A DNA stretch of 64,000 bases from Candidatus Elulimicrobiales bacterium (lineage in GTDB: Bacteria > Patescibacteriota > Minisyncoccia > Phycocordibacterales > UBA5272). The notes under the pieces were generated by a model that saw nothing but the letters and a program-made list of their open reading frames with translations, was not told the origin of the DNA and did not search any database. The DNA lies in contig JAYFPW010000006.1 in the NCBI GenBank assembly GCA_034927475.1, positions 9,197 through 73,196 of the forward strand. The letters run 5' to 3'. This document shows positions 7,969 to 64,000 of the stretch, piece by piece. The translations under genes were made by a program, and so were the position numbers. Positions within the stretch are counted from its first letter, which is position 1. The number at the start of each line of letters is the position of its first letter.

Positions 7969-9384
7969 TTAATCTCCTCCAGAATATAATATATTATCTA
8001 TGTTTAAAGTCCAAAGAGAACCGTCATTTTTATTTATAAAACCAAGATGGGATTTATAGGAGTTTATATTTAAATTTTTAGCATCAATAATATCTTCAAC
8101 TTGACCGTCTTTTTTAATATCAAACAAAAGTTTTCCATTTGGATAATCACTACTCATTACATAGAAATTGTCTTCCCAAGTGGTCATACCTTGATACCAA
8201 GCATCAGGTAAACCAGTATCATAGTTAATAATTTCTTTTGGTACAGAGCAAATTAAAAGTTGACCATTTGAGGCATTATTTTGTACACATTTATTAGCTA
8301 AAGTTGTGAAATTTAATGAAACTAAATCGTTGTCAGTGAAAGGTGTACTATTAAAGGTTGTGTTTTTATAAAGCTTTATCCCGGAGCCTGTAAAAATAGA
8401 TGTCAATAAATTATTGTTTTCTATTAAAAAGAACATTCCATTATGGTCTCCGTAAAGTTGAGAAAGGTCACCTAAAATATTTTTATGGATATTTACTTTA
8501 TAGAGCGTGTTATTTTCATATGCTGTATCAGTTGTTTGAGCAAAAAGATCACCAATATTAGAAAGAATTAATTTCCAAGAAGAAAGATCGGAGCTATAAA
8601 CTCTTCTACCATAAGAGTCATTTACGTCTTCTAATAAATACCAGTCTGTATAAGTATCGTCCTTTCCGCCAGTTTTTTTATTTTTTTGAACTATATAAGC
8701 TAAACGTGTATTGTTTTGAGAAGTTGTAATATTTTTTATATTATCCGGAAGAGTTGAAGAGTTCATTAAATTCGCAGTAGAGCCATAATATGTAGGTATT
8801 GTAGCACTCACAGTTTTTATTGTATTATCAGCATTTAAATATTGGAAAAATACTCTATTTTTATAACCTCCTTTTTCATTCATAAAGTAAGCTTTTACTG
8901 TATTTGGAAAAGGGGTAATCGTTACTTGATATGGACTAGAAGTTGGAGCAAGTAAATCTTTTTCATAAACAAAACCAGTTTCACTATCAACAAATTGCAG
9001 AATAGTTTTTGTAGAAGTGGCGTCTTGCTCGATACCGTCGATATCGATATATTTATAAGTAAACAGCTTATCATAAAAATTGTACCCAGCCACAGGTTTA
9101 TCCCAAATTTTTATTAAACCCTCAAAATAATAATCATGAGCAATATTTTCATCAAGATTGTTTCCGTCTGTGTCATCCCCCTTATTGTCACCAGTAAAAA
9201 AACTCAAAAGATTTTTAAAATTAAAAGCTGGTTTACCAGATAAGTCTTGCATGTTTTGAGAAGAATTTGTTTTATTTCTTAAAAAAAGAAAATAAAATAG
9301 TGAACCAAAAACGAAGATAGCAATAATAACGATAACTATTTCTTTTTTATATTTTTTAAAAAATGATTGTTTTTTAGGTTCCAT
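7969..9384 (-). CDS. Membrane-anchored extracellular protein (last gene of T4SS-like operon)
   Basis: 471 aa. It has an N-terminal TM (IVIVIIAIFVFGSLFYFLFL) followed by a large N/T/S-rich ectodomain. It is 4 bp from the upstream gene. Confidence 0.5.
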   Translation of the reverse strand: MEPKKQSFFKKYKKEIVIVIIAIFVFGSLFYFLFLRNKTNSSQNMQDLSGKPAFNFKNLLSFFTGDNKGDDTDGNNLDENIAHDYYFEGLIKIWDKPVAGYNFYDKLFTYKYIDIDGIEQDATSTKTILQFVDSETGFVYEKDLLAPTSSPYQVTITPFPNTVKAYFMNEKGGYKNRVFFQYLNADNTIKTVSATIPTYYGSTANLMNSSTLPDNIKNITTSQNNTRLAYIVQKNKKTGGKDDTYTDWYLLEDVNDSYGRRVYSSDLSSWKLILSNIGDLFAQTTDTAYENNTLYKVNIHKNILGDLSQLYGDHNGMFFLIENNNLLTSIFTGSGIKLYKNTTFNSTPFTDNDLVSLNFTTLANKCVQNNASNGQLLICSVPKEIINYDTGLPDAWYQGMTTWEDNFYVMSSDYPNGKLLFDIKKDGQVEDIIDAKNLNINSYKSHLGFINKNDGSLWTLNIDNILYSGGD

Positions 9385-9388
9385 AAGG

Positions 9389-10888
9389 CTATTTTCCAGT
9401 TAGTGACCAATGAACATTATCAGTTGTTCCTAGTTTATTATAAAAACCCCATCTACCACCATTTTCTTTAAGCCATAAAAATTCTTTTGTATTACAAGCT
9501 CCCACCTTTCCGCAACCTCCTATACTTGCATTTGTTAGATCTATCGCGGTACCATTTGAATGATTCGAACCGTTTCCGCCCATACTACAAGGTGTAGCCA
9601 CAGCACTCTTTCCTTTCATTTGATTATATAAACAAACTTGGGCGGCATCATCTCTATATCCAACATAAGCTTCTAATTTTATATTGGCCTCTGACAATGC
9701 AGCTGCTTGCATTTCTTTAAATTTTTGAGCAACGTCTTTTCTTAAATAGATTGGTCCAGCGGGAACACAACCACCATCTCTTTTTGTACCAACTTGTTCT
9801 AATTGATCATTTGTTAAGGCTACACAACCACCTTTACCACCATTGCTTGAAAAAAGCGACATACTTTCTGCTAATTCTTTCTGATATTCCACACAATATT
9901 GTGGAGCTGCTAAATTTGCTAAACGAGAACATCTTCCACCAACCTGACCACAATATCTACTATCCACAATTTCTCTAGCTACTCCCATATAATCTCCCAC
10001 ATCTAAGGCTTTTTTAAGATTTACAAAGCTAGATATACCACCAGACCCCATATTAAAAGTCATATTAATTAAAACGTTTTGGATATTTTCAGGGTGTTCA
10101 CTGAATCTTGATTGTCCTCCAGCAAAAGCTATAGCCATTTGTTTATGTGACTCAAAATCAGCCTCTAAAAGCTTTTTAATGTGCCTTTCTTCAATGGTTA
10201 CAGTTCTGTCGTAATTAAGAAGTTTGTTTACAGTATCCTCAGGTATTTCAGCTCTAAGTAAGTCGTTTTTAACAGTAGCCGCATCCGCTCTTTTTAAATT
10301 AAAACCAACTCCAATACTAGGGTTTCCTGTCGTGTCTGTGTAGATACTATTTCTGCTACCTTCGTCCTGCATGAGCATATCCATAATATTATTTGGACTT
10401 TTATATTTATCATTAGGATTACAAGTTTCAGTGTTAGGAGACATTCTTCTTAATGCGGTATTTGCGTATTTTGTCGCCAAGGTCCAACCTGTTAATTTAG
10501 GGTTGATAAAAGATAAAATCGCATAAGAGAAAATAAAAATTATTAAAGCTATTCCTGCATTTTGTATAAAACTCCTACCTTTTGTTTGTTGATAAATATT
10601 ATCTAAAGTTCCTTTTATAACAGCTCCTTGTATTACACGAAAAACAATTAAAACTATAATAACTACAGCCAAAATAGTTAAAAGATAATTCATTGTACTA
10701 GAAATTCCTCCTGTGTCAGTGTTGTCAAAGGTGGTAGAACTAGATGTACCATCAAAAGAAGAAACATAGTCATAGGTTTCCTGTCTAGAATAAACATCGG
10801 TTTGGTCCTGGCTTTGATTTTGAGAAAAAGAAATATTAAAAGAAAAGAGTGTAAAAATCAAAAAGAAAAAAACAAAAAACTTTTTCAT
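9389..10888 (-). CDS. Bifunctional cell-wall hydrolase: GH24 (T4-type) lysozyme domain + M15/VanY-type D-Ala-D-Ala peptidase domain; VirB1/PrgK-like role
   Basis: Signal peptide plus TM helices. The MLMQDEGSRNSIYTDTTGNPSIGVGF motif matches the T4 lysozyme catalytic E...D...T motif, and VLINMTFNMGSGGISSF matches ALINMVFQMGETGVAGF. The C-terminus has the SNHSNGTAIDL (SxHxxGxAxD) and ...VHW motifs of zinc D,D-carboxypeptidases. Confidence 0.7.
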   Translation of the reverse strand: MKKFFVFFFLIFTLFSFNISFSQNQSQDQTDVYSRQETYDYVSSFDGTSSSTTFDNTDTGGISSTMNYLLTILAVVIIVLIVFRVIQGAVIKGTLDNIYQQTKGRSFIQNAGIALIIFIFSYAILSFINPKLTGWTLATKYANTALRRMSPNTETCNPNDKYKSPNNIMDMLMQDEGSRNSIYTDTTGNPSIGVGFNLKRADAATVKNDLLRAEIPEDTVNKLLNYDRTVTIEERHIKKLLEADFESHKQMAIAFAGGQSRFSEHPENIQNVLINMTFNMGSGGISSFVNLKKALDVGDYMGVAREIVDSRYCGQVGGRCSRLANLAAPQYCVEYQKELAESMSLFSSNGGKGGCVALTNDQLEQVGTKRDGGCVPAGPIYLRKDVAQKFKEMQAAALSEANIKLEAYVGYRDDAAQVCLYNQMKGKSAVATPCSMGGNGSNHSNGTAIDLTNASIGGCGKVGACNTKEFLWLKENGGRWGFYNKLGTTDNVHWSLTGK

Positions 10889-40921: not shown

Positions 40922-40933
40922 GGTTATTTAAAA

Positions 40934-40968
40934 TAAAAGCCCTCATAAAAGTGAGGGTTTTTGTTTTT
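40934..40968 (+). terminator. Rho-independent terminator after tig
   Basis: AAAGCCCTCAtaaaaGTGAGGGTTTTTGTTTTT. Confidence 0.65.
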
Positions 40969-41039
40969 CTTCTATTTTTAGAACAGATGTTTTTTCTCCA
41001 CCAAGAGATTGTTTAGAACTTGTATCGAATTTAACTAAA

Positions 41040-41232
41040 ACAAAAAGACATTGCAAATATTTAAAAAGACAATATTTTTCTTAAAAATAAAAGACTTATT
41101 TTTTATAAAGGACATAAAAAGACAAAAATTTATAAAGGACATTTAAGAAAATTTACATAAAGGACAAGTTATCCACAGATATTTTCATAAAAGACATTGC
41201 ATTTAATTTAATGTCGTTTATAATATAAACAG
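41040..41232. repeat. Iteron-like array of AAAG(G)ACA(W) units with perfect DnaA box TTATCCACA (41169-41177); member of dispersed intergenic repeat family
   Basis: At least 8 copies of aaaggacat/aaaagacat within ~190 bp. It ends with ATGTCGTTTATAATATAA, which is shared with the copies at 59640, 62195, 48010 (inverted) and 49740. Confidence 0.55.
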
Positions 41233-41311
41233 GGTGAGCAGCTTAGGATAAAAGCGCAACCCGGCTTACGGGAATAATAAAAATAATATCCTATAAAGCT
41301 GGTTCTCACCA
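41232..41311 (+). other. Predicted stable ~80-nt stem-loop (possible small ncRNA; function unknown)
   Basis: GGTGAGCAGC-TTAGGATA-[...CCCGgcttaCGGG...]-TATCCTA-GCTGgttCTCACC are nested helices. It is flanked by AAACAG direct repeats. It does not match tRNA, tmRNA, SRP or RNase P signatures I can recognise. Confidence 0.3.
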
Positions 41312-41546
41312 AACAGTTCGTTACAAGCAACACAAGTTGCATAATAGCTAAAATAAACTAATAATAAATAATAGCACCCAACTTATATATTTTTGTTTGT
41401 CTTTTATAACTTTTAGACAAATAACTCAAAAGTATCTTAAATGTCTTTTATAAAAATAATAATCATCATAAAAGACATAAGCATTGAAAAATGCATCTCA
41501 AATACTAGAGGATGATACCTCACTAAAAACAATCAATATTATTCGT

Positions 41547-41589
41547 GTCCAGCGAATTAAATCCTTTCCAAAGATTTAGCTCGCTGGAC
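41547..41589. other. 43-bp near-perfect palindrome / hairpin
   Basis: GTCCAGCGAattAAATCcTTTccAAAGATTTagcTCGCTGGAC has a 9-bp outer stem and a palindromic inner stem. Confidence 0.4.
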
Positions 41590-41638
41590 ATGAGAAATAT
41601 CAAACTCTCCAATTATTCAGCGTCATGGTTGAGCCAAG

Positions 41639-41667
41639 CTCCCGGTTGAAATATGGGGAGTTTTTTA
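41639..41667 (+). terminator. Rho-independent terminator at end of the 0.96-kb noncoding region
   Basis: CTCCCggttgaaatatGGGGAG followed by TTTTTT. This implies a plus-strand transcript upstream with no ORF. Confidence 0.5.
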
Positions 41668-41884
41668 TTTGCAATTTTATATATAAAAATAACAATTATT
41701 TTAAATATTTTGTCAAGTTGTATTTTTTTCAAAAAAAGCTTTATACTATAAGGGTATTCTTGAAATTCGTTTTTTAAAATAAAAGCGAAAGAAAAGAATG
41801 TGCGCATATTAATAATATTTAAGATAATCCTAGGAAAATATCTTAAATTTAATTTTAAAAAACAAATTTAATTTAAATAAAAAT

Positions 41885-43632: not shown

Positions 43633-45141
43633 ATGAAAGAAGTATTTTTTATAAACTTTAACTTATTATTTATTTTGTTGGCAGCTATTGCTGGACTTGT
43701 GCTTGGTTATGTCGGAAGACATTATGTGGCTTTACTTAGAAAAAATTCAGTAGAAAATGAAATTGAGAGAAGACTTGAAGACGCTAAGAAAAATGCAAAA
43801 GAAATCGAAGACGCATCAAAAAAAGATGCTGACGAAATGAAACAAAGATTAGATAAAACAGAAGCTAGGTTAGATAAAAAAGAAGACGAATTAGAATCTC
43901 GCGAAGAAGCTGTCAAATTAGAAAAAGAAAAACTTTTCTCTGCAGCAGAAGAAGTAAAAAATATACAAGAAAGAGTTTTAGAAAAAGAAAAAGGTATTAA
44001 CAAAGAACTTGAAAAAGTCGCATCTCTTTCCGAAGAAGAGGCTAGAAAAATTTTAATAGAAAAAGTTGAGAGGGATAGCGGGGAAGATATTAAGTCTCGC
44101 CTATTAAAAATTTCTCGTGATGGGGAGAAAAAAATAGAAGAAAAAGCCAAAGATATTTTAGTTTCTGTAATACACAGATTAGCCAATTCAAATATTACAG
44201 AATTCATGACTTCTGTAGTAGAAATCGAAGATGAAGAAATCAAAGGTAAAATAATTGGTAAAGAAGGAAGAAATATTAAAACTTTTGAAAGGGCAAGTGG
44301 AGTAGAATTATTAATCGATGAAATTCCAAACGCTGTAGTCATTTCTTGTTTCGATCCAATTAGAAGAGCTATAGCAAAAAATGCTTTAGAAGGTCTTATA
44401 AAAGACGGAAGAATTCAACCAGCTCGCATTGAAGAATTTTTAGAAAAATCAAAAAGAGAAATAGGAACATTTATTCGCCAAAAAGGAGAAGAAGCTATCA
44501 GGGAAACTGGAATTTTAAATATTCCAGATGACATATTGCCGATTTTAGGAAGGCTTTATTTTAGAACAAGTTATGGACAGAATGTTTTAGATCACTCTAT
44601 AGAAATGTCTCATATTGCAGGTATGCTCGCCAGTGAGCTTGGTGCAGATGTGCAAGTAGCCAAAGCCGGAGCCTTACTTCACGATATTGGAAAAACTGTC
44701 GATCATGAAATTACTGGTACACATGTAGAAATTGGAAGAAGAATTTTGATGAAATACGGTGTAGATGAAAAAGTTATTTTAGCAATGCAAGCCCATCATG
44801 AAGAATATCCTTACGAAACTTTAGAATCTGTAATAGTTCAAGTAGCTGATACAATTTCTGGATCTCGTCCAGGAGCTAGAAGAGATTCTATAGAAAATTA
44901 TATTAAAAGACTTTCCGATTTAGAAAATTTAGCCATGAGTTTTCTTGGTATAGAAAAAGTTTATGCTTTGCAAGCTGGTAGAGAAATAAGAGTTTTTGTG
45001 GAGCCAAAATTGGTTAGTGATTTAGAAGCTTTATCTTTAGCTAGAAATATTGCTCTTAAAATTGAAACTGAAATTAAGTATCCAGGTGAGATTAAAATTA
45101 ATGTGATTCGTGAGAGTAGAGTGATAGAATTTGCGAGATAG
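43633..45141 (+). CDS. rny: Ribonuclease Y
   Basis: N-terminal TM, coiled coil, KH (IGKEGRNIKTFERASGVEL), and HD domain (LLHDIGK, HHEEY); 502 aa. Confidence 0.9.
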   Translation: MKEVFFINFNLLFILLAAIAGLVLGYVGRHYVALLRKNSVENEIERRLEDAKKNAKEIEDASKKDADEMKQRLDKTEARLDKKEDELESREEAVKLEKEKLFSAAEEVKNIQERVLEKEKGINKELEKVASLSEEEARKILIEKVERDSGEDIKSRLLKISRDGEKKIEEKAKDILVSVIHRLANSNITEFMTSVVEIEDEEIKGKIIGKEGRNIKTFERASGVELLIDEIPNAVVISCFDPIRRAIAKNALEGLIKDGRIQPARIEEFLEKSKREIGTFIRQKGEEAIRETGILNIPDDILPILGRLYFRTSYGQNVLDHSIEMSHIAGMLASELGADVQVAKAGALLHDIGKTVDHEITGTHVEIGRRILMKYGVDEKVILAMQAHHEEYPYETLESVIVQVADTISGSRPGARRDSIENYIKRLSDLENLAMSFLGIEKVYALQAGREIRVFVEPKLVSDLEALSLARNIALKIETEIKYPGEIKINVIRESRVIEFAR

Positions 45142-45155
45142 GGTTTAAAAAATAA

Positions 45156-45186
45156 AAAACTACCTTTAAGGTAGTTTTTTATTTTT
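45156..45186. terminator. Rho-independent terminator after rny
   Basis: AAAAACTACCTTtaaGGTAGTTTTTTATTTTT. Confidence 0.65.
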
Positions 45187-45208: not shown

Positions 45209-45550
45209 TTATTGATTAGCCATTTCTATGACTACTCCCGTTGCTTCTGGAAGATTATTACTAAATATATAGATGTAACCATCCCAGTCAGTTGCCACCA
45301 ATTTTGTTCCATCGGCAGAGGATGTGATAGAAGACCAGTATGGCATTAAACTCTCAGCTCCCCCCTCCTTCCAAGTTTCGCCACCATCTATTGACATATA
45401 AATTACTCCATCATATGTTGTTGCAGCCAACCTTGCGTCGCTAGCAGAAGATGTAACGGAAGCTTAATAAGACTCACTATTCGAAGCTTCACTCTCAGTC
45501 CATTTTTTCCCATCGTCTGCAGAGTGATAGAGTTTGCCAGGTAGTTTTAA
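45209..45550 (-). pseudogene. Remnant of a BNR/Asp-box repeat protein gene, interrupted by in-frame TAA (45464-45466)
   Basis: The reverse-strand reading ...LPGKLYHSADDGKKWTESEASNSESY*ASVTSSASDARLAATTYDGVIYMSIDGGETWKEGG... contains Asp-box motifs (SxDxGxxW) like the neighbouring 763-aa paralogue. It has no N-terminal signal region. Confidence 0.5.
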
Positions 45551-45628
45551 AAAATAAATATAAATTTAAAAATACAAATTCAAAAGCCCACGCCTTCAGT
45601 ACGGATCTTTTCTTCTTTAAAAAAATTC

Positions 45629-47920
45629 TTATTTCCTAATTTTTGCAACTACGCCTCTGGCTTGAGGAAGTTCATTGTACAACCTGTAAATCTTTGGTGT
45701 CTCTGTATTATCAGAATATTCCCATCTGACAAACATACTTTCTCCAGATCCAGACATGCTAACAATTGGGCTGTACCCCTTCGGAACACCAATCTCCTTA
45801 TTCCAAGTTTCTCCACAGTCTAAAGAAGAGTAAATATCTCCATCCCAATCAGAAATCAAAATCTTGTATCCATCATCAGAAATAGCCACACCGTTCCAAT
45901 AATCGGAACCGAGAGAGGTTATCTCTTTCCACGTCGCCCCTCCATCTCTAGATATAAGTGAGTAACCAGGATTTACACCTTCTATTGGTAACGGTTTGGT
46001 AATAACTATGGTCTTGCCATCTTTAGACGCATCTATTCCAGTAACAAGAGATAATAAAGGAGGATTTGTGTCTACCCAAGTTTTTCCTTCATCAGTAGAA
46101 ATATAAACACTGTCTGTAAAAGCAATAAATTTACTTCCACTATTTTCTACAAAAAGTTTTTTATTATACCAATATCCGCCTCTAGCAAGCTCTTCATGTT
46201 CTTCATATTCAATGTCTTCTAGTATAAAGTTTTCATCTAAAAGACTCTGTATTTCTAATTTGAAGAAATATAAGTAACCTATAAAATAGAGATATTTACC
46301 ATCAGGAGAAATATCGAAAGCGTCAAAAAAGATAGGAAAATCTGGAGGAAAATCATTCCAGGTATCACCACCGTCTAGAGAGAATATTGAATCTTCTGTT
46401 ATTCCATAAATCTTGTTTCCAAGAAATATAACTTCTCCATTTTCAGACATCTTTAAATCTACCCAATCGCCTAATGGAGCGCTACTGAGATTCCAATCTT
46501 GACCATAGTTATTAGAAATATAGACACTACCTTCTGATAAGGCCACAACCTTGTCTCCTTTCTTAGAAATTGCTAAAGAATCCAAAGACATTTGTCCAAT
46601 TTCTAACCAATCATTATATGTTAAAAGAAAGATATTATCTTCACTATAAGCAATACCTTTTTCATTCTCTACGAAAAATCTATAACGATAATAAGAGTTG
46701 GGTGTTAAATTTGTTGCGGTAGCTGTAAAAGTTCCCACATTAAAACTATCTGCTTCTTCTAAGATTTCATACGTACAAGAACTTTCCAGTGTAGCGCTTG
46801 AACAATATTCTACTCCTCGCCTTGTATGATTTGTGTTAATAAAAGCAGAAAAAGAAACTTCTGTTTGATTTCTAATAGCATAGGATAACGAAAATATTTT
46901 CGGTTTTTCTAATTCACCATATGAGTAAATATATCCATTTTGAAATCCAACAAAAAAATTCTTACCTTCACCATCTACAGAAATAGTTGTAGCTGACCAT
47001 TCTTCATCAGGTTTTAATACCTCTTTCCAACTTTTTCCACCATCAATAGAAAGTCCTATTTGATAGGCATTAATGGTCATTGATTTATTCCCGTCTCTAG
47101 AAGTGGCTAGTCCAGATGCTGCATAGCTCGGAGATTCAGCTTTATGCCAAGTATCTCCTCCATCTGTAGAATATGAGACAACTGCACCATTGGTTGCGGT
47201 TATTATTATGTTGTTTTCATCATCAGAGACTGATAAATCTTCCCAATACCAATAACCATCGTCATAAGTATAAGTGGTTATTGGTTTAGATATCCAAGTG
47301 GCTCCGTAATTATTTGAGATGAAAAAAGCGTCAGACCATCCGACAGATAGGATCTTTTCCCCATTTGGGGATACGTAAATATCTTTAGGATTTATGGGAT
47401 CAGTAGAACTTGCCCAACTTTCTCCAGAATCAGTTGACACATAAACCCTTATGCGATAATCATTTCTGTTATGAGCTATAGTCCCAATGGTTTTTCCATC
47501 ATCTGATAAGGATATATTGTGCCAATAGTCAACTTCAGGCGGATTATTTAAAGAGCTCCATGTTGCTCCAAAATCGGAAGATAGGTATATATAATTTTTT
47601 CCAGAAGCTATTACATATTTTCCGTCTGGAGAAGAATTAATATCTGACCAATGTTGAACGGGAAAACTTTTTAATTCCCAGGTATTTCCTTTGTCTTTAG
47701 ATATATAAATATTTTCACCATAATTTTCAATTGCAGCCAGTTGATTTCCGTCAGAAGAAGAGGTTATGGCTTTCCAATTTCTTTTGCCTGCATTAGTTTT
47801 AGCAGTCCAAACCATAGATATATTTGTCGTAGTAGCTTCTTGCGCAAAACTAAGACCAAAAGAAAAAAGTAGAGAAAGGATAAAGGCAGTAATAGTGAGT
47901 TTTTTAATAATATTTTTCAT
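45629..47920 (-). CDS. Secreted BNR/Asp-box repeat beta-propeller protein with Fn3-like insert
   Basis: Signal peptide plus >=10 Asp-box motifs (SKDKGNTW, SSDFGATW, STDSGESW, STDGGDTW, SIDGGKSW, SLDGGDTW, STDEGKTW, SRDGGATW, SLDCGETW). The TATATNLTPNSYYRYRFFVENEKG segment is shared with the 62378+ paralogue. Confidence 0.7.
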   Translation of the reverse strand: MKNIIKKLTITAFILSLLFSFGLSFAQEATTTNISMVWTAKTNAGKRNWKAITSSSDGNQLAAIENYGENIYISKDKGNTWELKSFPVQHWSDINSSPDGKYVIASGKNYIYLSSDFGATWSSLNNPPEVDYWHNISLSDDGKTIGTIAHNRNDYRIRVYVSTDSGESWASSTDPINPKDIYVSPNGEKILSVGWSDAFFISNNYGATWISKPITTYTYDDGYWYWEDLSVSDDENNIIITATNGAVVSYSTDGGDTWHKAESPSYAASGLATSRDGNKSMTINAYQIGLSIDGGKSWKEVLKPDEEWSATTISVDGEGKNFFVGFQNGYIYSYGELEKPKIFSLSYAIRNQTEVSFSAFINTNHTRRGVEYCSSATLESSCTYEILEEADSFNVGTFTATATNLTPNSYYRYRFFVENEKGIAYSEDNIFLLTYNDWLEIGQMSLDSLAISKKGDKVVALSEGSVYISNNYGQDWNLSSAPLGDWVDLKMSENGEVIFLGNKIYGITEDSIFSLDGGDTWNDFPPDFPIFFDAFDISPDGKYLYFIGYLYFFKLEIQSLLDENFILEDIEYEEHEELARGGYWYNKKLFVENSGSKFIAFTDSVYISTDEGKTWVDTNPPLLSLVTGIDASKDGKTIVITKPLPIEGVNPGYSLISRDGGATWKEITSLGSDYWNGVAISDDGYKILISDWDGDIYSSLDCGETWNKEIGVPKGYSPIVSMSGSGESMFVRWEYSDNTETPKIYRLYNELPQARGVVAKIRK

Positions 47921-47989
47921 AAAAATTTTTATAATTTGTTTTTATTTTTTAATTAGATAATTTATACAAAGAAAAAGATGCCTAGAACA

Positions 47990-48100
47990 AAAAGCTCTAA
48001 GCACCCTTACTTATATATTTATATTATAAACGACATTTTATAAAAGACAAGTTTTCATAAAGGACAAGATGGGGATAACTTCTTTGTTAAGTTTGTTAAA
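47990..48100. repeat. Inverted copy of dispersed promoter-proximal repeat (DnaA-box-like TTATCCCCA + TGTCCTTTAT/TGTCTTTTATAAAA/TGTCGTTTATAATATAA + 5'UTR hairpin)
   Basis: Its reverse complement matches 62213-62320 at ~90% over >100 bp. It sits upstream of the minus-strand BNR gene. Confidence 0.6.
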
Positions 48101-48985: not shown

Positions 48986-49411
48986 TTAAAGAATAAATTC
49001 TTCATAGAATCTTATTTTAGCTTGTTTGGTATTTACATTTAAAAATACAATTATAGCCATGACTTTTATATCTATTTCCCCTTCCGATATTTTTCTAAAA
49101 GACAAATAATGTTTTATAGCTTTTAATATTCTTTGTCTTTTAGTTTTGGTTAGATTATTTTCTGGAGAATAAGCAAAATCATTTATTTTCTCGAAACTAG
49201 CTATTTTTTTAGTTTTTACCTCTATAAAAGCTAGGTTTTGTAGTTTCACGTGTAAATATTTTTGTCTTTCATTGAAATTCTTGCTAGCAATAATGTCTAT
49301 TTCCCCTCCTTTCACGTGAAAATTCCTTTCAATTATAGAGAAATCTTTATTTTTTAAATATTTCACAGCTAATTCTTCACCCAATTTACCTATTTCATTA
49401 TGTTCAGCCAT
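48986..49411 (-). CDS. yraN: YraN/UPF0102-family predicted endonuclease
   Basis: 141 aa with GKLGEELAVKYLKNKDFSIIERNFHVKGGEIDIIA...FIEVKTKK, matching the UPF0102 pattern. Confidence 0.7.
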   Translation of the reverse strand: MAEHNEIGKLGEELAVKYLKNKDFSIIERNFHVKGGEIDIIASKNFNERQKYLHVKLQNLAFIEVKTKKIASFEKINDFAYSPENNLTKTKRQRILKAIKHYLSFRKISEGEIDIKVMAIIVFLNVNTKQAKIRFYEEFIL

Positions 49412-49435
49412 ATATTCATCTTTATTTTATCATAA

Positions 49436-49463
49436 GTTTCACATGAAATTTTCATGTGAAATC
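49436..49463. promoter_or_regulatory. Perfect 25-bp palindrome TTTCACATGAAA-T-TTTCATGTGAAA; core of a cluster of TTTCAC(A/G)TGAAA sites
   Basis: Additional half-sites are at 49596-49607, 49531-49545 (TTTTACGTGAAAA), 50680-50691, and inside yraN at ~49245 and ~49308 (TTTCACGTGAAA). All lie in or near the yraN-ung divergent region. Confidence 0.45.
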
Positions 49464-49885
49464 ACTTTTTAAGTAAAATATTTAATTTAGAAATTAAAAA
49501 ATAATGTTTGTTTTTAGAATAAACAAAAACGTTTTACGTGAAAAATAAGAAAAACAAAAGAAAAAATAGTAGAACTATAGGAATTAATATTTTTGTTTCA
49601 CATGAAACAAAAAAGACATAAAATTGAGCAAAAAAGCCTTAAAAATAAAGACTTAAGGAATAAGCCTTATTTTAAGGACTTATTTGAAATAAACCTAGTG
49701 TCTTTTAGAAAATGTCTTTTAGAAAATGTCTCTTAAAAACATGTCGTTTATACACATTTGCACGGACTTTTCCACTATATTTTATAAAAGACAAGATTTT
49801 TTTCAAATGTCTTTTTGTTTAAAAAGTCTTTTATTATTCTTCAAATAACCTGAGAGAATATGCTAAGATTTTATATATAACAATT

Positions 49886-50967: not shown

Positions 50968-51017
50968 CATAGTTAAGAGTTTATTGCTATTTTTTTGATT
51001 TTTATTATAATTATTAT

Positions 51018-51300
51018 CTCTTTCCCAAATGATTACAGATTTTATTTTTTTAAAATCTGAGGAAAGTCGGAACACATACCTCTTCTTTGAAAGTTAAAAA
51101 GGTAGCGGGTAACGCCCGTCCATCGTGAGATGAGAGTTGCGAACAGTGACGAACCTATTTATTTAGGGTGAAACGGCTAAATACTTACCTGTGTGTAAGG
51201 TCGTGCTTTGATTTATTTCAAAGAGTGCCGCTAGAATTTTGAAGTAATTCAAAATCCAGATAAATAATCATATAAACAGAATTCCGCTTATGTGAAAGAG
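51018..51300 (+). ncRNA. rnpB: RNase P RNA (bacterial type, minimal ~283 nt)
   Basis: P1 CTCTTTC/GAAAGAG, P2 ATGATT/AATCAT, a P3 hairpin, and the conserved blocks GAGGAAAGTCGG, GGTAACGCCCG, AGGGTGAAACGG and ACAGAATTCCGCTTAT (P4 strands). It is followed by a terminator. Confidence 0.75.
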
Positions 51301-51305
51301 AATAT

Positions 51306-51363: not shown

Positions 51364-51687
51364 TTATTTAACGACTTTTTTAGTTGTTGTTTTCTTAGGA
51401 GAGGTCTTTTTTATTTCAACTTTTTTCGTTGTTGGTTTTTTAGCGACAACTTTTTTTACTTCAACTTTCTTTGTCTCATCTTTTTTAATTGGAGCCTTTT
51501 TAGGAATAACGATTGTCTCGTCAACTTCTTCAATTTCAGCAGCTAAAGCTTTATCTTTCAAAGAATTAATTGCTTTCATCGCGGAAGCTTTTTTTGTATA
51601 ACTTTCTGTCCAGAAAATAACTTCTTTTCTGTAAACAAATTGAACCCTAAAACCATTTTCATTCTTAATTAATTTAAATTTGTGCAT
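51364..51687 (-). CDS. DUF1508/YegP-family domain protein with lysine-rich histone-H1-like C-terminal tail
   Basis: The N-terminal ~55 aa (KFKLIKNENGFRVQFVYRKEVIFWTESYTKKASAMKAINSLKD) follows the YegP repeat pattern. The C-terminus is (K/T/V/P)-rich: KKVVAKKPTTKKVEIKKTSPKKTTTKKVVK. Confidence 0.65.
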   Translation of the reverse strand: MHKFKLIKNENGFRVQFVYRKEVIFWTESYTKKASAMKAINSLKDKALAAEIEEVDETIVIPKKAPIKKDETKKVEVKKVVAKKPTTKKVEIKKTSPKKTTTKKVVK

Positions 51688-59639: not shown

Positions 59640-59790
59640 AGTTTTTTTAAGGGTGTCTATAAAAACAAAGACTCATAAAGGACACTTATCCACAACTTGT
59701 CCTTTATAAAAACTTGTCTTTTATAAGATGTCGTTTATAATATAAGTATATAAGTAATGGGTTGCTAATTGAGCTTTTAGTTCTCTTGGC
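59640..59790. repeat. Dispersed promoter-proximal repeat copy with perfect DnaA box TTATCCACA (59676-59684) between inverted ATAAAGGACA / TGTCCTTTAT arms
   Basis: cATAAAGGACActTATCCACAacTTGTCCTTTATAAAAACTTGTCTTTTATAAGATGTCGTTTATAATATAAGTATATAAGTAA is ~90% identical to 62213-62290. Confidence 0.6.
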
Positions 59791-59841
59791 AGCCTTTTTA
59801 TTTGTAAATTTTATTTAACTTTTTAATTAAGAACAAAAATC

Positions 59842-60666
59842 ATGAAAAAAAAATTAGTAACAATATTAACTTTAATATTTGTTTTCACCATGTTTTCTGC
59901 TGTGGCTAATGCACAAAAACCAGGCGAGGTTTTAGTCGGTGAATACACATATTATGACGCAGAAGGAGATTTAGAATATGGGTCAACTTATCAATGGTAT
60001 AGAGGAGACACTCCTATACCAGGAGCTACAGATATAAATTATACTATTACTGAAGAAGATATAGGAACAATTCTATATTTTGAGGTGACTCCTAGATCTT
60101 TGACAGGAATTTCTCCAGGAGAGCCATTTAAGAGTGAGGGAATAGAAATTTCTAAAAAGTCTTCAGAAAAGCCTTCAGGCTTATTACCTTTACCTATACC
60201 GGTAAAAGCTTCTACTTCTACTCCAGTTGTGATTCAGGCAACTTCTACCGCCACTACCACTATCGTAACCCCTACAACTCCTAAGACAGGTATAGTTTCA
60301 GGAAATGGTTCATATGTCTCTCCTTTAGATCAAAAGACTTACACTTGTAATGCAGACAGCAAACCATTCAACTCATTTATGAGATTAAACTCTAAAAACA
60401 ATGATGTGAATCAAGTTAAGCTTTGGCAGGCATTCTTAAATGCAGATTTAGGTCTTAATATACCTATTACAGGTTTCTTTGGACAACAAACTTTTGAAGC
60501 TACTAAAGCTTTTCAAAAAAAATATGCTTCTGAAATCTTAACTCCATGGGATATTCAAGATGCAACAGGATATTTCTATAAATCAACACAATATAAAGCT
60601 AATAACCTCTTATCATGTTCAGGAATGACTCTAACTTTAGATAATGGTGTAGTTCTTAATTACTAA
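59842..60666 (+). CDS. Secreted hypothetical protein
   Basis: 274 aa with a signal peptide (LTLIFVFTMFSAVANA) and a T/S/P-rich linker. Confidence 0.45.
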   Translation: MKKKLVTILTLIFVFTMFSAVANAQKPGEVLVGEYTYYDAEGDLEYGSTYQWYRGDTPIPGATDINYTITEEDIGTILYFEVTPRSLTGISPGEPFKSEGIEISKKSSEKPSGLLPLPIPVKASTSTPVVIQATSTATTTIVTPTTPKTGIVSGNGSYVSPLDQKTYTCNADSKPFNSFMRLNSKNNDVNQVKLWQAFLNADLGLNIPITGFFGQQTFEATKAFQKKYASEILTPWDIQDATGYFYKSTQYKANNLLSCSGMTLTLDNGVVLNY

Positions 60667-60748: not shown

Positions 60749-61459
60749 ATGGATATACTATTTTTAATTTTCTTTTTTATTATTATCTTTTATTCTATCA
60801 TTTTACATGAAATAGCGCATGGTTATGCAGCCTATAGAAATGGGGATGCGACAGCTTACAATGCGGGGCGATTAACTTTGAACCCCATCTCTCATATTGA
60901 TGCGATAGGCTCTATTGTAGTTCCTATTTTTTCATATTTAGTATTGAAATTTCCTTTTGGTTGGGCAAAACCTGTTCCCTATAATCCAAACAATATACAA
61001 GGTAAAAAATATGCAGAATTAGAAATTTCAGCAGCTGGGATTTTAACTAATTTCACAATAGCTCTTTTAGCTGTAGTTGTTTTTTATATATTAAGATTTT
61101 TTGGTTTAGGAACAGAGTCAGTATTTTTAATACTTCAAACCATTACTTCAGTAAATTTATTTTTAGGATTATTTAATTTATTACCATTTCCACCAGCAGA
61201 TGGTTTTTCAGTTTTTACAGAACTTTTTTCTTTAGCAAAAGATTTTTGGTTAAAAATTAAAAATAGTTTTTCGAAAAAGAAAGAATATGAAGTGAGGTAT
61301 ATGGGCAAAACAAATTCTTTTAAAAATACAAGCTATAGAATAAAAGCTTTATTTTCCAACCCTTTAATGATGATAATTATAATTATAGTTGCTGTGAATA
61401 TTTTTCAGTTACTTGTCCCTTATATAATGTCCTTTATAAATTTTTTATACTCATTTTAG
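60749..61459 (+). CDS. Site-2 protease family (peptidase M50) membrane metalloprotease
   Basis: Has the HExxH motif (ILHEIAHGYAAY) in TM1, LNPISHID, and the NLLPFPPADGF (LDG-type) motif; multi-TM, 236 aa. Confidence 0.7.
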   Translation: MDILFLIFFFIIIFYSIILHEIAHGYAAYRNGDATAYNAGRLTLNPISHIDAIGSIVVPIFSYLVLKFPFGWAKPVPYNPNNIQGKKYAELEISAAGILTNFTIALLAVVVFYILRFFGLGTESVFLILQTITSVNLFLGLFNLLPFPPADGFSVFTELFSLAKDFWLKIKNSFSKKKEYEVRYMGKTNSFKNTSYRIKALFSNPLMMIIIIIVAVNIFQLLVPYIMSFINFLYSF

Positions 61460-61521
61460 TTTTCCCCACTTTTGTCCTTTATAAATATTGTCTTTTATAA
61501 AATGTCCTTTATAATATATAT
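61455..61521. repeat. Degenerate copy of dispersed promoter-proximal repeat (TGTCCTTTATAAA / TGTCTTTTATAAAA / TGTCCTTTATAATATAT)
   Basis: It has the same three-unit tandem architecture as the 59640 and 62195 copies, but the DnaA-box position reads TTTCCCCAC. Confidence 0.45.
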
Positions 61522-62193
61522 ATGTATAGAAATACTAAAAAAATTCTAGTTTTTTCATTTTTAATAATGTCCTTTATAGGTTTTGGTTTTTATAATGTAG
61601 ACGCGCAAGTAGAACAAAAGTTTTCTCCTATAGCTGATAGTGTTTCATGTATTGATGCACAATATGATTTAAGTTTTGGCTCTAGAGATTACGCGCTTTA
61701 TGGAAATGTACAAAAACTTCAACACTTCCTTTTTGAAAATGGAATTATGTATCATGCTCCAACTGGATATTTTGGTCCAATCACTCAAGCTTCCTTAATT
61801 AAGTATCAAACCCTGAGAAACCTTTATCCTACAGGCTTTTTTGATTCAAATACCAGAAAAGCTGTAGCTAGAGAGACTTGTGAACAAAATGAAATAGTTA
61901 ATAATGTTAGACTTATTACTAATTACAATCCACAATATCCAAATACTCAACAACCAAACCCGACTTATTCTCCACAAACTCAATATCCAGATAATACCAA
62001 CACTCAAATTCCTAATTCCACAAATACTTCTAGCAATCAAAGTCCTTATTATTATGTCCCTCAGACCACAAATCCTTACTACAGCACCACTACCACAAAC
62101 ACCCCCACTTTAGATAAACAGATTTATTATCAAATAACTGAACAGATGCTAGGATTTAAGCTTAACTCTACAACCCCAAATGTTCTTCCATAA
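61522..62193 (+). CDS. Secreted protein with putative peptidoglycan-binding (PG_binding_1-like) domain and Q/P/T/N-rich tail
   Basis: Signal peptide, then TGYFGPITQASLIKYQ (compare the DGxFGPxT...FQ motif), and a C-terminal low-complexity YP(N/Q)TQ repeat region. Confidence 0.5.
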   Translation: MYRNTKKILVFSFLIMSFIGFGFYNVDAQVEQKFSPIADSVSCIDAQYDLSFGSRDYALYGNVQKLQHFLFENGIMYHAPTGYFGPITQASLIKYQTLRNLYPTGFFDSNTRKAVARETCEQNEIVNNVRLITNYNPQYPNTQQPNPTYSPQTQYPDNTNTQIPNSTNTSSNQSPYYYVPQTTNPYYSTTTTNTPTLDKQIYYQITEQMLGFKLNSTTPNVLP

Positions 62194-62194
62194 T

Positions 62195-62335
62195 AAACGA
62201 TAAACGACAAAGTTATCCACATCTTGTCCTTTACAAAATATTGTCTTTTATAAAATGTCGTTTATAATATAAGTATATAAGTAAGGGTGCTTAGAGCTTT
62301 TTGCTCTAGGCATCTTTTCTTTGTATAAAATATCC
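62195..62335. repeat. Dispersed promoter-proximal repeat copy with perfect DnaA box TTATCCACA (62213-62221) and conserved 5'UTR hairpin
   Basis: Same architecture as the other copies. The GCTTAGAGCtttttGCTCTAGGC hairpin is shared with the inverted copy at 47990-48020. Confidence 0.6.
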
Positions 62336-62377
62336 AATTAAAAATAAAAATAAATTATAAAACATTATAAAAATTTT

Positions 62378-64000
62378 ATGAAAAAACTATTATTTACTTT
62401 CTTTGCTTTCGCAATAATATTATCTTCTTTTTCTTTTACTTTTGCGGAAGGGGCAACAAGTACAGCTACCAGTACTTATGGGTGGGTAGCAGAAGTAGCA
62501 TCTGGAGAAAGGAGATGGACTTCCATCACCTCATCCTTTGACGGCACGAAATTGGCTGCAGTTTTAAATGATGGTTACATCTATACCTCCACCGACTCTG
62601 GAGTAACTTGGACAGAACAAACAAGTTCTGGTTCAAGAGAATGGTCTTCCATCACCTCTTCTTCTGATGGAACAAAATTAGCGGCAGCGGTATATGATGG
62701 TTATATTTACAGCTCCACCGACTCTGGAGTAACTTGGACAGAACAAACTGGTTCTGGACAAAGACCTTGGAAATCCATCACTTCTTCTACTGACGGAACA
62801 AAATTAGCGGCAGCGGTATATGATGGTTATATTTACACCTCCACCGACTCTGGAGTAACTTGGACAGAACAAACTGGTTCTGGACAAAGACCTTGGGAAT
62901 CCATCACCTCATCTGCTGACGGTAGTAAATTAGCAGCAGTAGGAGCTAGTGGCTATATCTACACCTCCACTGACTCTGGGGCTACTTGGACAGAACAAAC
63001 TGGTTCTGGACAAAGACCTTGGAAATCCATCACCTCTTCCGCTGACGGAACAAAACTTGCGGCAGCACCATATTATGGTTACATCTACACCTCCACCACT
63101 TCTGGAGTAACTTGGACAGAACAAACTGGTTCTGGACAAAGACCTTGGGAATCCATCACCTCTTCTGCTGACGGAACAAAACTTTCAGCAGTAGTAAGAT
63201 ATGATGGTTACATCTACACCTCCACCACTTCTGGAGTAACTTGGACAGAACAAACAAGTGCTGGACAAAGAGGGATGTGGAAATCCATCACCTCTTCTGC
63301 TGACGGTACAAAGTTGGCAGCAGTAGCATATTATGATTACATCTACACCTACGGTCCTATTCCTTTACCAACAGTTGTTTCTAATCCTACATCTATAACA
63401 AATAGAACTTCTTTAGTGTTTAATGGCTATGTGAACACTTCGCACACTATACATGGAGTAGAATACTGTATTACAGGAGCATCTAATACACCTTGTGATT
63501 TTGCTAATGCCGAAAGAATAGAAGAAGAAGGATCTTATAGTTTAGGAGATATTGCTTTTACTGTTGATAATGTAACCCCTAACTCTTTCTTGCATTATAG
63601 ATTTTATGCTGAGAATGAAGAAGGTAGAAGTTATTCAGATGTTCAAACTATTTTTTTTGAATATAAAGAATTCAGACAGCAAACAAGTTCTGGTTCAAGA
63701 GACTGGTCTTCCATCACCTCTTCTTCTGATGGAACAAAATTAGCGGCAGCGGTATATGATGGGTATATTTACACCTCCACCGATTCTGGAGCTACTTGGA
63801 CAGAACGAACAAGTGCTGGTTCAAGAAGTTGGGTTTCCATCACCTCTTCTGCTGATGGAACAAAATTAGTGGCAGTAGTAGAGGGTGGCTACATCTACAC
63901 CTCCACCGACTCTGGATTAAATTGGGCACGGCAAGAAAGTGCTGGTTCAAGAAGTTGGACTTCCATCACCTCATCCTTTGACGGCACGAAATTGGCTGCA
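62378..64000 (+). CDS. Secreted BNR/Asp-box-like tandem-repeat surface protein (N-terminal part; continues beyond window)
   Basis: ATG at 62378 with a signal peptide (LLFTFFAFAIILSSFSFTFA). It then has >=9 near-identical 42-aa units (W.SITSS.DGTKLAAAVYDGYIYTSTDSGVTWTEQTGSGQRP), an Fn3-like unique segment (TPNSFLHYRFYAENEEGRSY) also present in 45629-47920, and further repeats. The frame is open to 64000. Confidence 0.7.
   Translation, partial: MKKLLFTFFAFAIILSSFSFTFAEGATSTATSTYGWVAEVASGERRWTSITSSFDGTKLAAVLNDGYIYTSTDSGVTWTEQTSSGSREWSSITSSSDGTKLAAAVYDGYIYSSTDSGVTWTEQTGSGQRPWKSITSSTDGTKLAAAVYDGYIYTSTDSGVTWTEQTGSGQRPWESITSSADGSKLAAVGASGYIYTSTDSGATWTEQTGSGQRPWKSITSSADGTKLAAAPYYGYIYTSTTSGVTWTEQTGSGQRPWESITSSADGTKLSAVVRYDGYIYTSTTSGVTWTEQTSAGQRGMWKSITSSADGTKLAAVAYYDYIYTYGPIPLPTVVSNPTSITNRTSLVFNGYVNTSHTIHGVEYCITGASNTPCDFANAERIEEEGSYSLGDIAFTVDNVTPNSFLHYRFYAENEEGRSYSDVQTIFFEYKEFRQQTSSGSRDWSSITSSSDGTKLAAAVYDGYIYTSTDSGATWTERTSAGSRSWVSITSSADGTKLVAVVEGGYIYTSTDSGLNWARQESAGSRSWTSITSSFDGTKLAA
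62459..64000 (+). repeat. Near-perfect 126-bp tandem repeats inside coding sequence (interrupted 63340-63690)
   Basis: Unit starts at 62585, 62711 and 62837 are exactly 126 bp apart with >90% nucleotide identity. 63940-64000 re-matches 62500-62560 exactly. Confidence 0.7.

Follow-up and report, generated by a model that had tools for sequence, protein, structure and literature searches.

Highly repetitive, recently amplified beta-propellers have been described (Afanasieva et al. 2019, PMC6805158; Pereira & Lupas 2022, PMC9218822). Asp-box cases (Sortilin- and photosystem II (PSII)-like) make up about 5% of the set in the second study, which also reports propeller fragments in adjacent non-coding DNA (Pereira & Lupas 2022, PMC9218822). 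Here we analyse two Asp-box propeller genes, designated A and B for convenience, and a promoterless remnant of a further copy in a stretch of 64,000 nucleotides (nt; hereafter the window), positions 9,197 to 73,196 of contig JAYFPW010000006.1. The window is a low-GC bacterial chromosome segment (about 31% GC) of a Candidatus Elulimicrobiales metagenome-assembled genome (MAG) from a bioreactor metagenome; the order is assigned to the Patescibacteria group. We consider it probable that A and B are secreted, likely wall-associated binding proteins that occupy a few promoter-defined sites and are diversified by replacement and by gain or loss of modules, through recombination between lineages and between sites, with B homogenised in its blades as well. 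A and B add new members to a known superfamily, and the repetitiveness of B is a known phenomenon. What appears to be undescribed is that several genes for secreted proteins share one promoter-leader module and that propeller genes are swapped between sites and diverged lineages of Patescibacteria; literature searches for comparable module reuse or propeller-gene swapping found nothing comparable. The three elements are as follows.

Gene A, 45629..47920, minus strand: intact open reading frame (ORF) of 763 amino acids (aa), secreted; signal peptide, seven-bladed Asp-box propeller, Fn3-like insert (about aa 340-440), second propeller and C-terminal tail YNELPQARGVVAKIRK.
Gene B, 62378..64000, plus strand, truncated by the window end: 541 codons, open throughout; signal peptide, blade array 1 (seven units, 62516-63340), Fn3-like insert (63341-63697) and blade array 2 (at least three units, 63704-64000).
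Remnant, 45209..45520, minus strand: about 104 codons of a B-type 3' end, comprising 2.5 blades and the tail SNNLPEATGVVIEMANQ, with an in-frame TAA at 45466-45464.

By BLASTP, A and B align as collinear paralogues along 530 aa at 32% identity (E=4e-61), and the alignment takes in the insert between the propellers. A preliminary description of the window had recognised them as two large secreted Asp-box proteins with a common style of signal peptide, and both points hold. Their N-termini are hydrophobic and signal-peptide-like, ending in FAQE or FAEG (signal peptides were assigned by eye from hydrophobic N-termini, not by a predictor). The Asp-box motif SxDxGxTW is visible in every unit of both proteins, and a tblastn search of the 64 kb with the blade consensus matches A, B and the remnant only. 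Gene A scores above the Pfam cut-offs for Sortilin-Vps10 (75.5 bits) and BNR (43.5 bits; cut-off 27), and B reaches 29.5 bits for BNR_6 (cut-off 27). The Sortilin-Vps10 match is partial, with its best stretch at profile positions 2-114 of 446; a ten-bladed propeller of the Sortilin/Vps10 type does not fit, the propellers here being seven-bladed. The protein of gene A is an exact match to MEA4910911.1 and MPL75911.1 (Candidatus Elulimicrobiales), and the sources annotate it as 'Ycf48-like'. An exact look-up of the 541-aa fragment of B gave no match. In the protein database, the best match to B at near-full coverage is 51% identical, and partial matches reach 71%; the maximum is 51% in GTDB genomes and 62% in JGI metagenome contigs.

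AlphaFold (AF2) models built with 39 homologues predict closed beta-propellers of the Asp-box (BNR) superfamily. The predicted local distance difference test (pLDDT) score exceeds 95 for aa 34-327 of B. For gene A it is 77 overall, with block means in the first propeller mostly between 85 and 97 and a few dips. The insert falls below 50 in both proteins and the predicted template modelling (TM) score is 0.53-0.61, so that the inter-domain geometry is unreliable. The best PDB matches in Foldseek are GH74 xyloglucanases, which are tandem seven-bladed Asp-box propellers, followed by seven-bladed Ycf48 (probability 1.0 for both groups); the Ycf48 structures give TM scores of 0.70-0.76 (normalised to the target), and identity across the Foldseek matches is 12-19%. 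The beta-propeller that the preliminary description had asked about is thus borne out by the models. Across 120 homologues, Asp-box counts group at 6-7 and 12-14, and the consensus blade of the homologues, WxSIASSADGTKLxA...GxIYTSxDSGxTWT, is almost that of B. Because the fold models, the consensus blade and the Asp-box counts agree, the 126-bp unit is one propeller blade, and the structure fixes the count per array at seven.

The family is very large, with 6,102 matches among 8,000 candidates scored in the protein database. Relatives are mostly labelled 'photosystem II stability/assembly factor-like' or hypothetical. The resemblance to Ycf48/HCF136 lies in the seven-bladed Asp-box propeller. 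The window proteins differ in having two propellers, an insert and a signal peptide instead of a single propeller, and they score 23.8 bits against Pfam PSII_BNR (cut-off 27) and 25.8 against NCBIfam Ycf48 (PRK13684; cut-off 326). A role in PSII assembly is implausible, since the MAG is annotated as belonging to the Patescibacteria group and Patescibacteria are not known to be photosynthetic. The insert is conserved among paralogues (GVEYC...C...TPNS..YRF.EN..G..YS). The earlier proposal of a shared Fn3-like insert is right as to the shared, conserved insert; the Fn3 label is carried by sub-threshold matches only, namely Pur_ac_phosph_N (24.1 bits; threshold 30), fn3 (E=0.043) and the Fn3 domains of titin and neogenin (E=0.16-0.29). 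Many homologues terminate in a transmembrane helix and a basic tail, and a subset including A and the remnant ends in tails of the Y.N.LP.A...V type instead. A sortase-type signal in the 'LPQARG/LPEATG' tail is ruled out, as only 8-11 residues follow the motif and they include no hydrophobic segment. Overall, A and B are probably secreted binding proteins in which two closed seven-bladed Asp-box propellers are joined by a small beta-sandwich, and they probably lie at the cell surface.

The blades of B are more alike than those of its relatives. Ten 'WxSITSS' unit starts are present in B, split into two arrays of seven and then at least three by a non-repeat insert of about 360 nt. The preliminary description had counted at least nine tandem units with more than 90% identity; the count survives, whereas the identity does not. 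Among nine units, the mean pairwise DNA identity is 77% (63-94%) and a single pair lies above 90%, and the blades are 62-93% identical as protein. In Tandem Repeats Finder, the arrays come out as 6.5 copies (84% matches) and 2.4 copies (80%). Identical stretches of 45-62 nt recur at dispersed places in the gene. The segment 63940-64000, which had been called an exact repeat of 62500-62560, matches it at 54 of 61 positions, the identical part being the last 45 nt only.

At sites where two B blades carry the same residue, the same codon is used in 75% of cases, compared with 44% expected from codon usage. The nearest DNA neighbour of each regular B blade is another B blade (0.80-0.94), across both propellers too, and likeness drops to 0.5-0.72 for the blades of the closest relatives of B, the genes of the related lineage L031, which are irregular in length. 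(The cross-lineage loci used here and below, L010, L013, L015, L016, L017, L019 and L031, are metagenome contigs throughout.) The blades of B are closer to each other than to the blades of homologues, synonymous sites included, which is the mark of recent amplification or homogenisation. The codon homogenisation, the nearest-neighbour pattern and the scattered exact stretches together indicate that the blades have been kept alike by lineage-specific re-amplification or by intragenic gene conversion. B resembles the described repetitive propellers (PMC9218822) in its mutually nearest blades with shared codons and in the non-coding fragment beside a family member. It differs in that its mean DNA identity of 77% is well under the near-identity, at the nucleotide level too, of the most repetitive example in that paper, and in that the fragment here derives from the tail of another paralogue, joined to a piece of RNase Y, and not from a frameshifted part of the adjacent gene. 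The GC content at third codon positions is 0.32-0.37 in the B blade arrays and 0.32 in the remnant, compared with 0.17-0.23 in neighbouring genes and 0.16 in the B insert. The raised values in the blades could stem from a blade unit of foreign origin, from biased gene conversion or from an avoidance of TA runs, which are slippery.

Both genes are headed by the same promoter-leader cassette, and its promoter module recurs at two further genes.

Cassette heading gene A, 47924..48081, minus strand: two TTGTCYTTTAYRAAA boxes, TTGTCT-16-TATAAT (48050-48023), hairpin with U-run (48008-47974) and A-rich 5' untranslated region (5'UTR).
Cassette heading gene B, 62210..62366, plus strand: TTGTCT-16-TATAAT (62241-62268) and leader hairpin with U-run (62283-62317).
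Third module copy, 59675..59806, plus strand: sequence-distinct hairpin; heads a 274-aa secreted Ig-like/peptidoglycan (PG)-binding gene (59842-60666).
Fourth module copy, 61458..61518, plus strand: no hairpin; heads a 223-aa secreted PG-binding gene (61522-62193).

The cassettes of A and B are identical at 146 of 159 alignment columns (91.8%), and the longest stretch without a mismatch is 32 nt. A shared upstream cassette of about 120 bp had been noted before; it is real and longer. A 30-mer of the cassette occurs exactly twice, against 0 expected. The order of elements is a pair of TTGTCYTTTAYRAAA boxes at a distance of 17 nt, then a degenerate third box with the -10 element inside it and, 14 nt on, a 15-bp hairpin with a U-run, followed by the A-rich 5'UTR. 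The full promoter module stands at four genes (A, B and those of 274 and 223 aa), all of which encode signal-peptide-like N-termini. The hairpin is found at A, at B and at the 274-aa gene, and also at the long gene of L010 and at a 120-aa gene of L015. Four sequence-distinct leader hairpins fold at the same position with -21 to about -27 kcal/mol; that of gene A has -24 kcal/mol, and the leader RNA of gene B folds at -27.8 kcal/mol (z=-5.7). A comparison with Rfam found no match to the leader hairpin, either at E<=1 or at the gathering threshold. Its role may be that of a 5' stabiliser or of an attenuator. Contigs of the Logan collection that carry the neighbouring 223-aa gene all end 60-77 nt past it, inside the cassette. 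Because these same-strain contigs end there, the cassette is repeated within the genome at k-mer identity. In practice, short-read assemblies systematically break at the cassette, and genes of this kind are under-represented in databases as a result.

The gene body behind the cassette differs between related lineages at three sites.

Site 1, between a 178-aa gene and RNase Y: in the window, A (763 aa) and the remnant; in L013, an A form of 760 aa with RNase Y directly after it and no remnant; in L019, an 1148-aa form and a remnant without the stop and with one blade fewer; in L010, an 1150-aa form with no remnant and a different tail.
Site 2, flanked by the 223-aa PG-binding gene and by a 120-aa gene that has a cassette of its own and precedes EF-Tu/S10: in the window, gene B; in L015, L016 and L017, an A-type gene of 763 aa (JGI, MEGAHIT-style and SPAdes-style contigs); in L031, an 1192-aa gene with three propellers and two inserts, which has the signal peptide of B and 48% identity to B.
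Site 3, between a metallo-beta-lactamase-fold gene and an M50 peptidase gene: in the window, the 274-aa gene (signal peptide, Ig-like, PG-binding); in L031, signal peptide, propeller, insert and propeller, then the same Ig-like and PG-binding parts.

At site 1, the signal peptide of the long forms is a different one, and an additional propeller-insert module is fused in frame at 'VWAAKTNAGKRNW' to mature A. The 90% identity cluster of gene A holds forms of 759-763 aa and of 1146-1151 aa, and the 1150-aa form is a single uninterrupted ORF in three samples, with variants in others. At site 2, the homology of L031 that takes in the signal peptide of B extends to window position 62431, and the L031 flanks are about 90% identical to the window. 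At site 3, the fusion to Ig-like and PG-binding parts in L031 is the sole direct hint of cell-wall display.

The body of gene A is far more conserved between lineages than its flanks. Body and flank identities to the window are 99.7% and 74-83% for L010 (95% in a tRNA-bearing stretch), 98.65% and 82-92% for L015, 95.5% and 77-83% for L013, and 94.2% and 74-84% for L019. Housekeeping genes such as RNase Y are 83-84% identical to the window across lineages. Gene A has thus moved recently between lineages, and also between sites, because the identity of its body sharply exceeds that of the flanks and because an A-type gene stands at site 2. Variation by recombination between lineages is supported. 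The preliminary description had proposed surface variation by recombination, and the different genes and module numbers at the cassette sites, with the contrast between body and flanks, bear out that part; the repeat-number mechanism that it put forward is a separate matter, weighed below.

The arrangement recalls the vsp/vlp systems of Mycoplasma, which, as generally known, consist of paralogous secreted proteins with a conserved promoter, 5'UTR and in part signal peptide, divergent repeat-rich bodies and a gene content that differs between strains. Unlike those systems, the window loci have no site-specific recombinase, invertible promoter or homopolymer switch, the genes are dispersed instead of clustered, and the variation documented here lies between lineages, not within clones. 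As a separate observation, the site-3 gene of L031 is split into ORFs of 163 and 873 aa by a frameshift in a (TA)5 run of GYIY codons (10470-10492). One additional TA unit or the loss of 1 nt would restore the frame, and the 163-aa ORF occurs on 11 contigs. This frameshift could be a dinucleotide-repeat on/off switch or could mark a pseudogene. Gene B of the window encodes GYIY as GGTTACATCTAC, without a TA run.

The remnant lies between gene A and RNase Y and is joined to a copy of the 3' end of the latter.

RNase Y 3'-end copy, 45521..45573, between gene A and the remnant: the last seven codons RVIEFAR and the stop (plus strand), with downstream spacer.
RNase Y true 3' end, 45118..45170, plus strand: end of the gene at 43633-45141 and start of a bidirectional terminator; partner of the duplicated fragment.

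The RNase Y gene has the Pfam domains RNase_Y_N, KH and HD; the inverted repeat of the terminator lies at 45148-45186, and the copy of the gene end and 45118-45151 make up direct repeat D1. Read on the minus strand, the stop of gene A is followed by an 80-nt spacer, by AGAGTGATAGAGTTTGCCAGGTAG (RVIEFAR-stop on the plus strand) and then, without a break, by blade sequence. The remnant frame, LYHS-ADDGKKW, exits the RNase Y fragment, LYHS being the reverse complement of the RVIE codons. The fragment and its spacer match the real RNase Y end of L013 at 52 of 53 positions and that of the window itself at 34 of 53. The same junction between RNase Y and blade is present in the window, in L015 and L017 (site 2) and in L019; the A-type gene at site 2 thus still carries the RNase Y fragment.

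The remnant has no start codon and no promoter. Compared with the blades of B, it is 62-65% identical over about 190 nt and up to 77% over 70 nt, and it gives no DNA alignment to gene A; a comparison with internal units of the full genes, suggested earlier, thus yields similarity to B at the DNA level and none to A. Its tail, NNLPEATGVV..., is a tail type of the propeller family. A search for its full-length parent found only its own 62-aa ORF at 100% and relatives at no more than 47%. The remnant had been taken for a decayed, stop-interrupted third copy; the in-frame TAA is real, and what is left is the 3' end only, not a decayed whole copy. Simple tandem duplication as its origin, which would give an alternation of RNase Y end and gene tail, each twice, is ruled out by the missing DNA alignment to the 3' end of A and by the match of the fragment to L013 instead of the window's own RNase Y. 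Because it is fused to an RNase Y fragment of another lineage's type, we read the remnant as a recombination scar.

The remnant had further been suggested as a donor cassette. In the pilE/pilS and vlsE/vls systems, as generally known, promoterless partial copies likewise lie beside an expressed paralogue. The window, by contrast, has one fragment with an internal stop, of 62-77% identity to B, unalignable to A and attached to RNase Y, and a donor role is unlikely. The remnant may once have been a right-hand homology anchor, as one related locus suggests: in L015, near-identity to the window ends at '...ARLAAT', and the similarity of the tail beyond that point, judged by eye, is only about 75%. 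This pattern looks like a second crossover within a blade on entry into site 2, and no other observation points to such an anchoring role. The remnant is one blade (43 codons) shorter in L015 and L019 than in the window. A crossover between A tail and remnant tail as the source of the divergent tail of L010 (LPQAKNVRAVIR) is speculation only; local DNA alignment found the RNase Y region there, not the tails.

We propose a small number of 'expression sites' in the genome, with one and the same promoter and leader-hairpin module in front of each. At these sites, gene bodies would be replaced, moved between sites or altered by whole propeller-insert modules between related lineages. The exchange would proceed by homologous recombination anchored in the conserved module, the blades and the tail, with occasional illegitimate joins. 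Most simply, a block consisting of A, spacer and RNase Y end would have been imported from another lineage with an L013-like arrangement and joined at a microhomology (TCTATCACTCT) within a blade of a resident B-type gene, the 3' end of which would have remained as the remnant; the order and direction of these events are inferred. Homology-facilitated illegitimate recombination was reportedly described by de Vries and Wackernagel in 2002 for natural transformation. The window agrees with it in having a foreign A block with a donor-type RNase Y end (52/53 to L013), homology on one side and the TCTATCACTCT microhomology on the other, and in encoding the competence gene ComEC/Rec2; the mechanism here is read from the scar only. 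A more far-reaching version is tentative, and we hold it more doubtful than not: the 5' promoter-leader(-signal peptide) module and the 3' last blade with its 'LPxA' tail (and the next promoter module) would serve as portable homology arms, by which naturally competent Patescibacteria swap whole propeller genes between exchangeable 'expression slots' and between species with about 20% housekeeping divergence.

The preliminary description had offered a different account, in which the 126-bp units expand and contract by slipped-strand pairing or unequal crossing-over to give phase or antigenic variation of an adhesin, with the remnant as a silent donor. Intragenic recombination in B is indeed evident from its exact repeats of 45-62 nt and from codon homogenisation, the remnants of the window and of L015/L019 differ in length by exactly one blade, and a related gene of L031 is broken in its (TA)5 run. 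The units, however, are blades of closed seven-bladed propellers, and homologues keep 6-7 or 12-14 Asp-boxes; unit identity, with its mean of 77% and maximum of 94%, stays under the roughly 95-100% of slippage-prone surface repeats; the lineages were seen to differ by whole genes or by propeller-and-insert units of about 385 aa rather than by single blades of intact genes; and the remnant is single, promoterless, distant from B, unalignable to A and attached to RNase Y. We regard a change of unit number by slippage or unequal crossing-over as improbable. The reading of A and B as secreted glycoside hydrolases (GH74-like or sialidase-like), whose diversity would reflect substrate range, is somewhat less remote, yet still unlikely. 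It draws on the GH74 xyloglucanases among the structural matches (OXG-RCBH included), which share the tandem arrangement of two seven-bladed Asp-box propellers, on a match of gene A to the NCBIfam 'F510_1955 family glycosylhydrolase' (E=3e-31), and on relatives labelled 'sialidase family protein' or 'exo-alpha-sialidase'. Identity to GH74 is nevertheless 12-16%, with a root-mean-square deviation of 15-18 Å over the whole chain; the F510_1955 score of 108.7 falls short of the 175-bit cut-off, and no NCBIfam model matches at its cut-off; GH74 is absent from the Pfam and NCBIfam matches of A and B, and a PDB sequence search returned no chain at E<=0.001. The cleft of GH74, moreover, is formed by directly apposed propellers, whereas a domain is inserted between the propellers here. 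Secreted binding proteins exchanged between sites and lineages therefore remain our preferred reading.

Several observations weigh against that reading, and some of them suggest instead that the B array and the differences in gene content are chimeras made by short-read assemblers across cassette and blades. All comparison loci are metagenome contigs, and the cassette is a point at which short-read assemblies break and could be mis-joined; every Logan contig with A or with the 223-aa gene stops inside it. The last 45 nt of the window repeat 62516-62560 exactly, which would fit an assembly break, and the link from upstream gene to gene body across the window's own cassette could itself be such a mis-join. 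No orthologue of B was found in any protein or contig collection searched, so that B contributes no variation data. The contig comparisons give no timescale for the exchange. Surface location and binding are deduced solely from the signal peptides and from the PG-binding fusion in one relative, and an alignment of six leaders by MAFFT, which is not structure-aware, gives 9 consensus pairs of which 2 are compensatory. An assembly artefact as the general explanation nonetheless has little probability in our view. B is in frame over 541 codons and has a confident fold, and gene A, the remnant and RNase Y are reproduced at 100% in an independent 57-kb contig. The 1150-aa form is uninterrupted in three samples, with variants elsewhere. 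A occurs at site 2 in three different assemblies, with both junctions unlike those of the window, and a mis-join in an assembly graph cannot yield an RNase Y fragment that accompanies A to that site.

Elements of the promoter module also occur apart from the propeller genes. The 15-nt motif TTGTCYTTTAYRAAA has 16 copies in the window against 0.66 expected (41101-41455, 48036-48067, 49091-49832, 51970, 59697-59728, 61472-61502 and 62224-62255), usually in tandem pairs 17 nt apart and immediately 5' of TATAAT. It looks like a lineage-specific promoter/operator element that serves genes besides the propeller genes. At the 223-aa PG-binding gene, the last base of the TATAAT is 61515 and the ATG starts at 61522, 6 nt after the end of the -10 box, and the gene appears to be leaderless. 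A fourth version of the hairpin is found in the module downstream of site 2 (L015, 10163-10661; L031, 18460-18956), which heads the 120-aa protein; this protein has an N-terminal membrane segment, its gene lies directly before the EF-Tu/S10 operon, and its counterpart lies beyond the window end. A stretch of about 960 nt without ORFs (40922-41884) contains four motif copies and a promoter. It includes a structured element of about 80 nt (41232-41310; minimum free energy -28.2 kcal/mol, z=-3.4), which may be an unannotated small RNA; the best Rfam match in the stretch is Phe_leader (37 bits; cut-off 55), located elsewhere in it. The divergent intergenic region between UPF0102 and the uracil-DNA glycosylase (UDG) gene (49699-49750 and 49797-49832) has tandem repeats with periods of 14 nt (3.6 copies, motif-related) and 17 nt.

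Other features of the window are unconnected with the module. A 45-nt tandem repeat of 2.1 copies lies at 51374-51468. Also encoded in the window are tRNAs and an RNase P RNA that is short (289 nt); the latter matches the Rfam model at 51017-51305 over 289 nt of 367 positions, with a score of 102.3 (gathering score 100), which suggests that the RNase P RNA of this organism is reduced in size.

Patescibacteria in culture live attached to other microbes, and host recognition by them is, to our knowledge, largely unknown. In B, the family has a clean natural example of a gene in which blades are homogenised while those of close relatives diverge. If the more far-reaching version with exchangeable slots is correct, it would provide a recombinase-free route for changing host-contact proteins in an episymbiont. 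The double-propeller proteins would be candidate host-contact determinants, provided that the common strong promoter, the fusion to a PG-binding anchor in a relative and an exchange faster than genome divergence hold.

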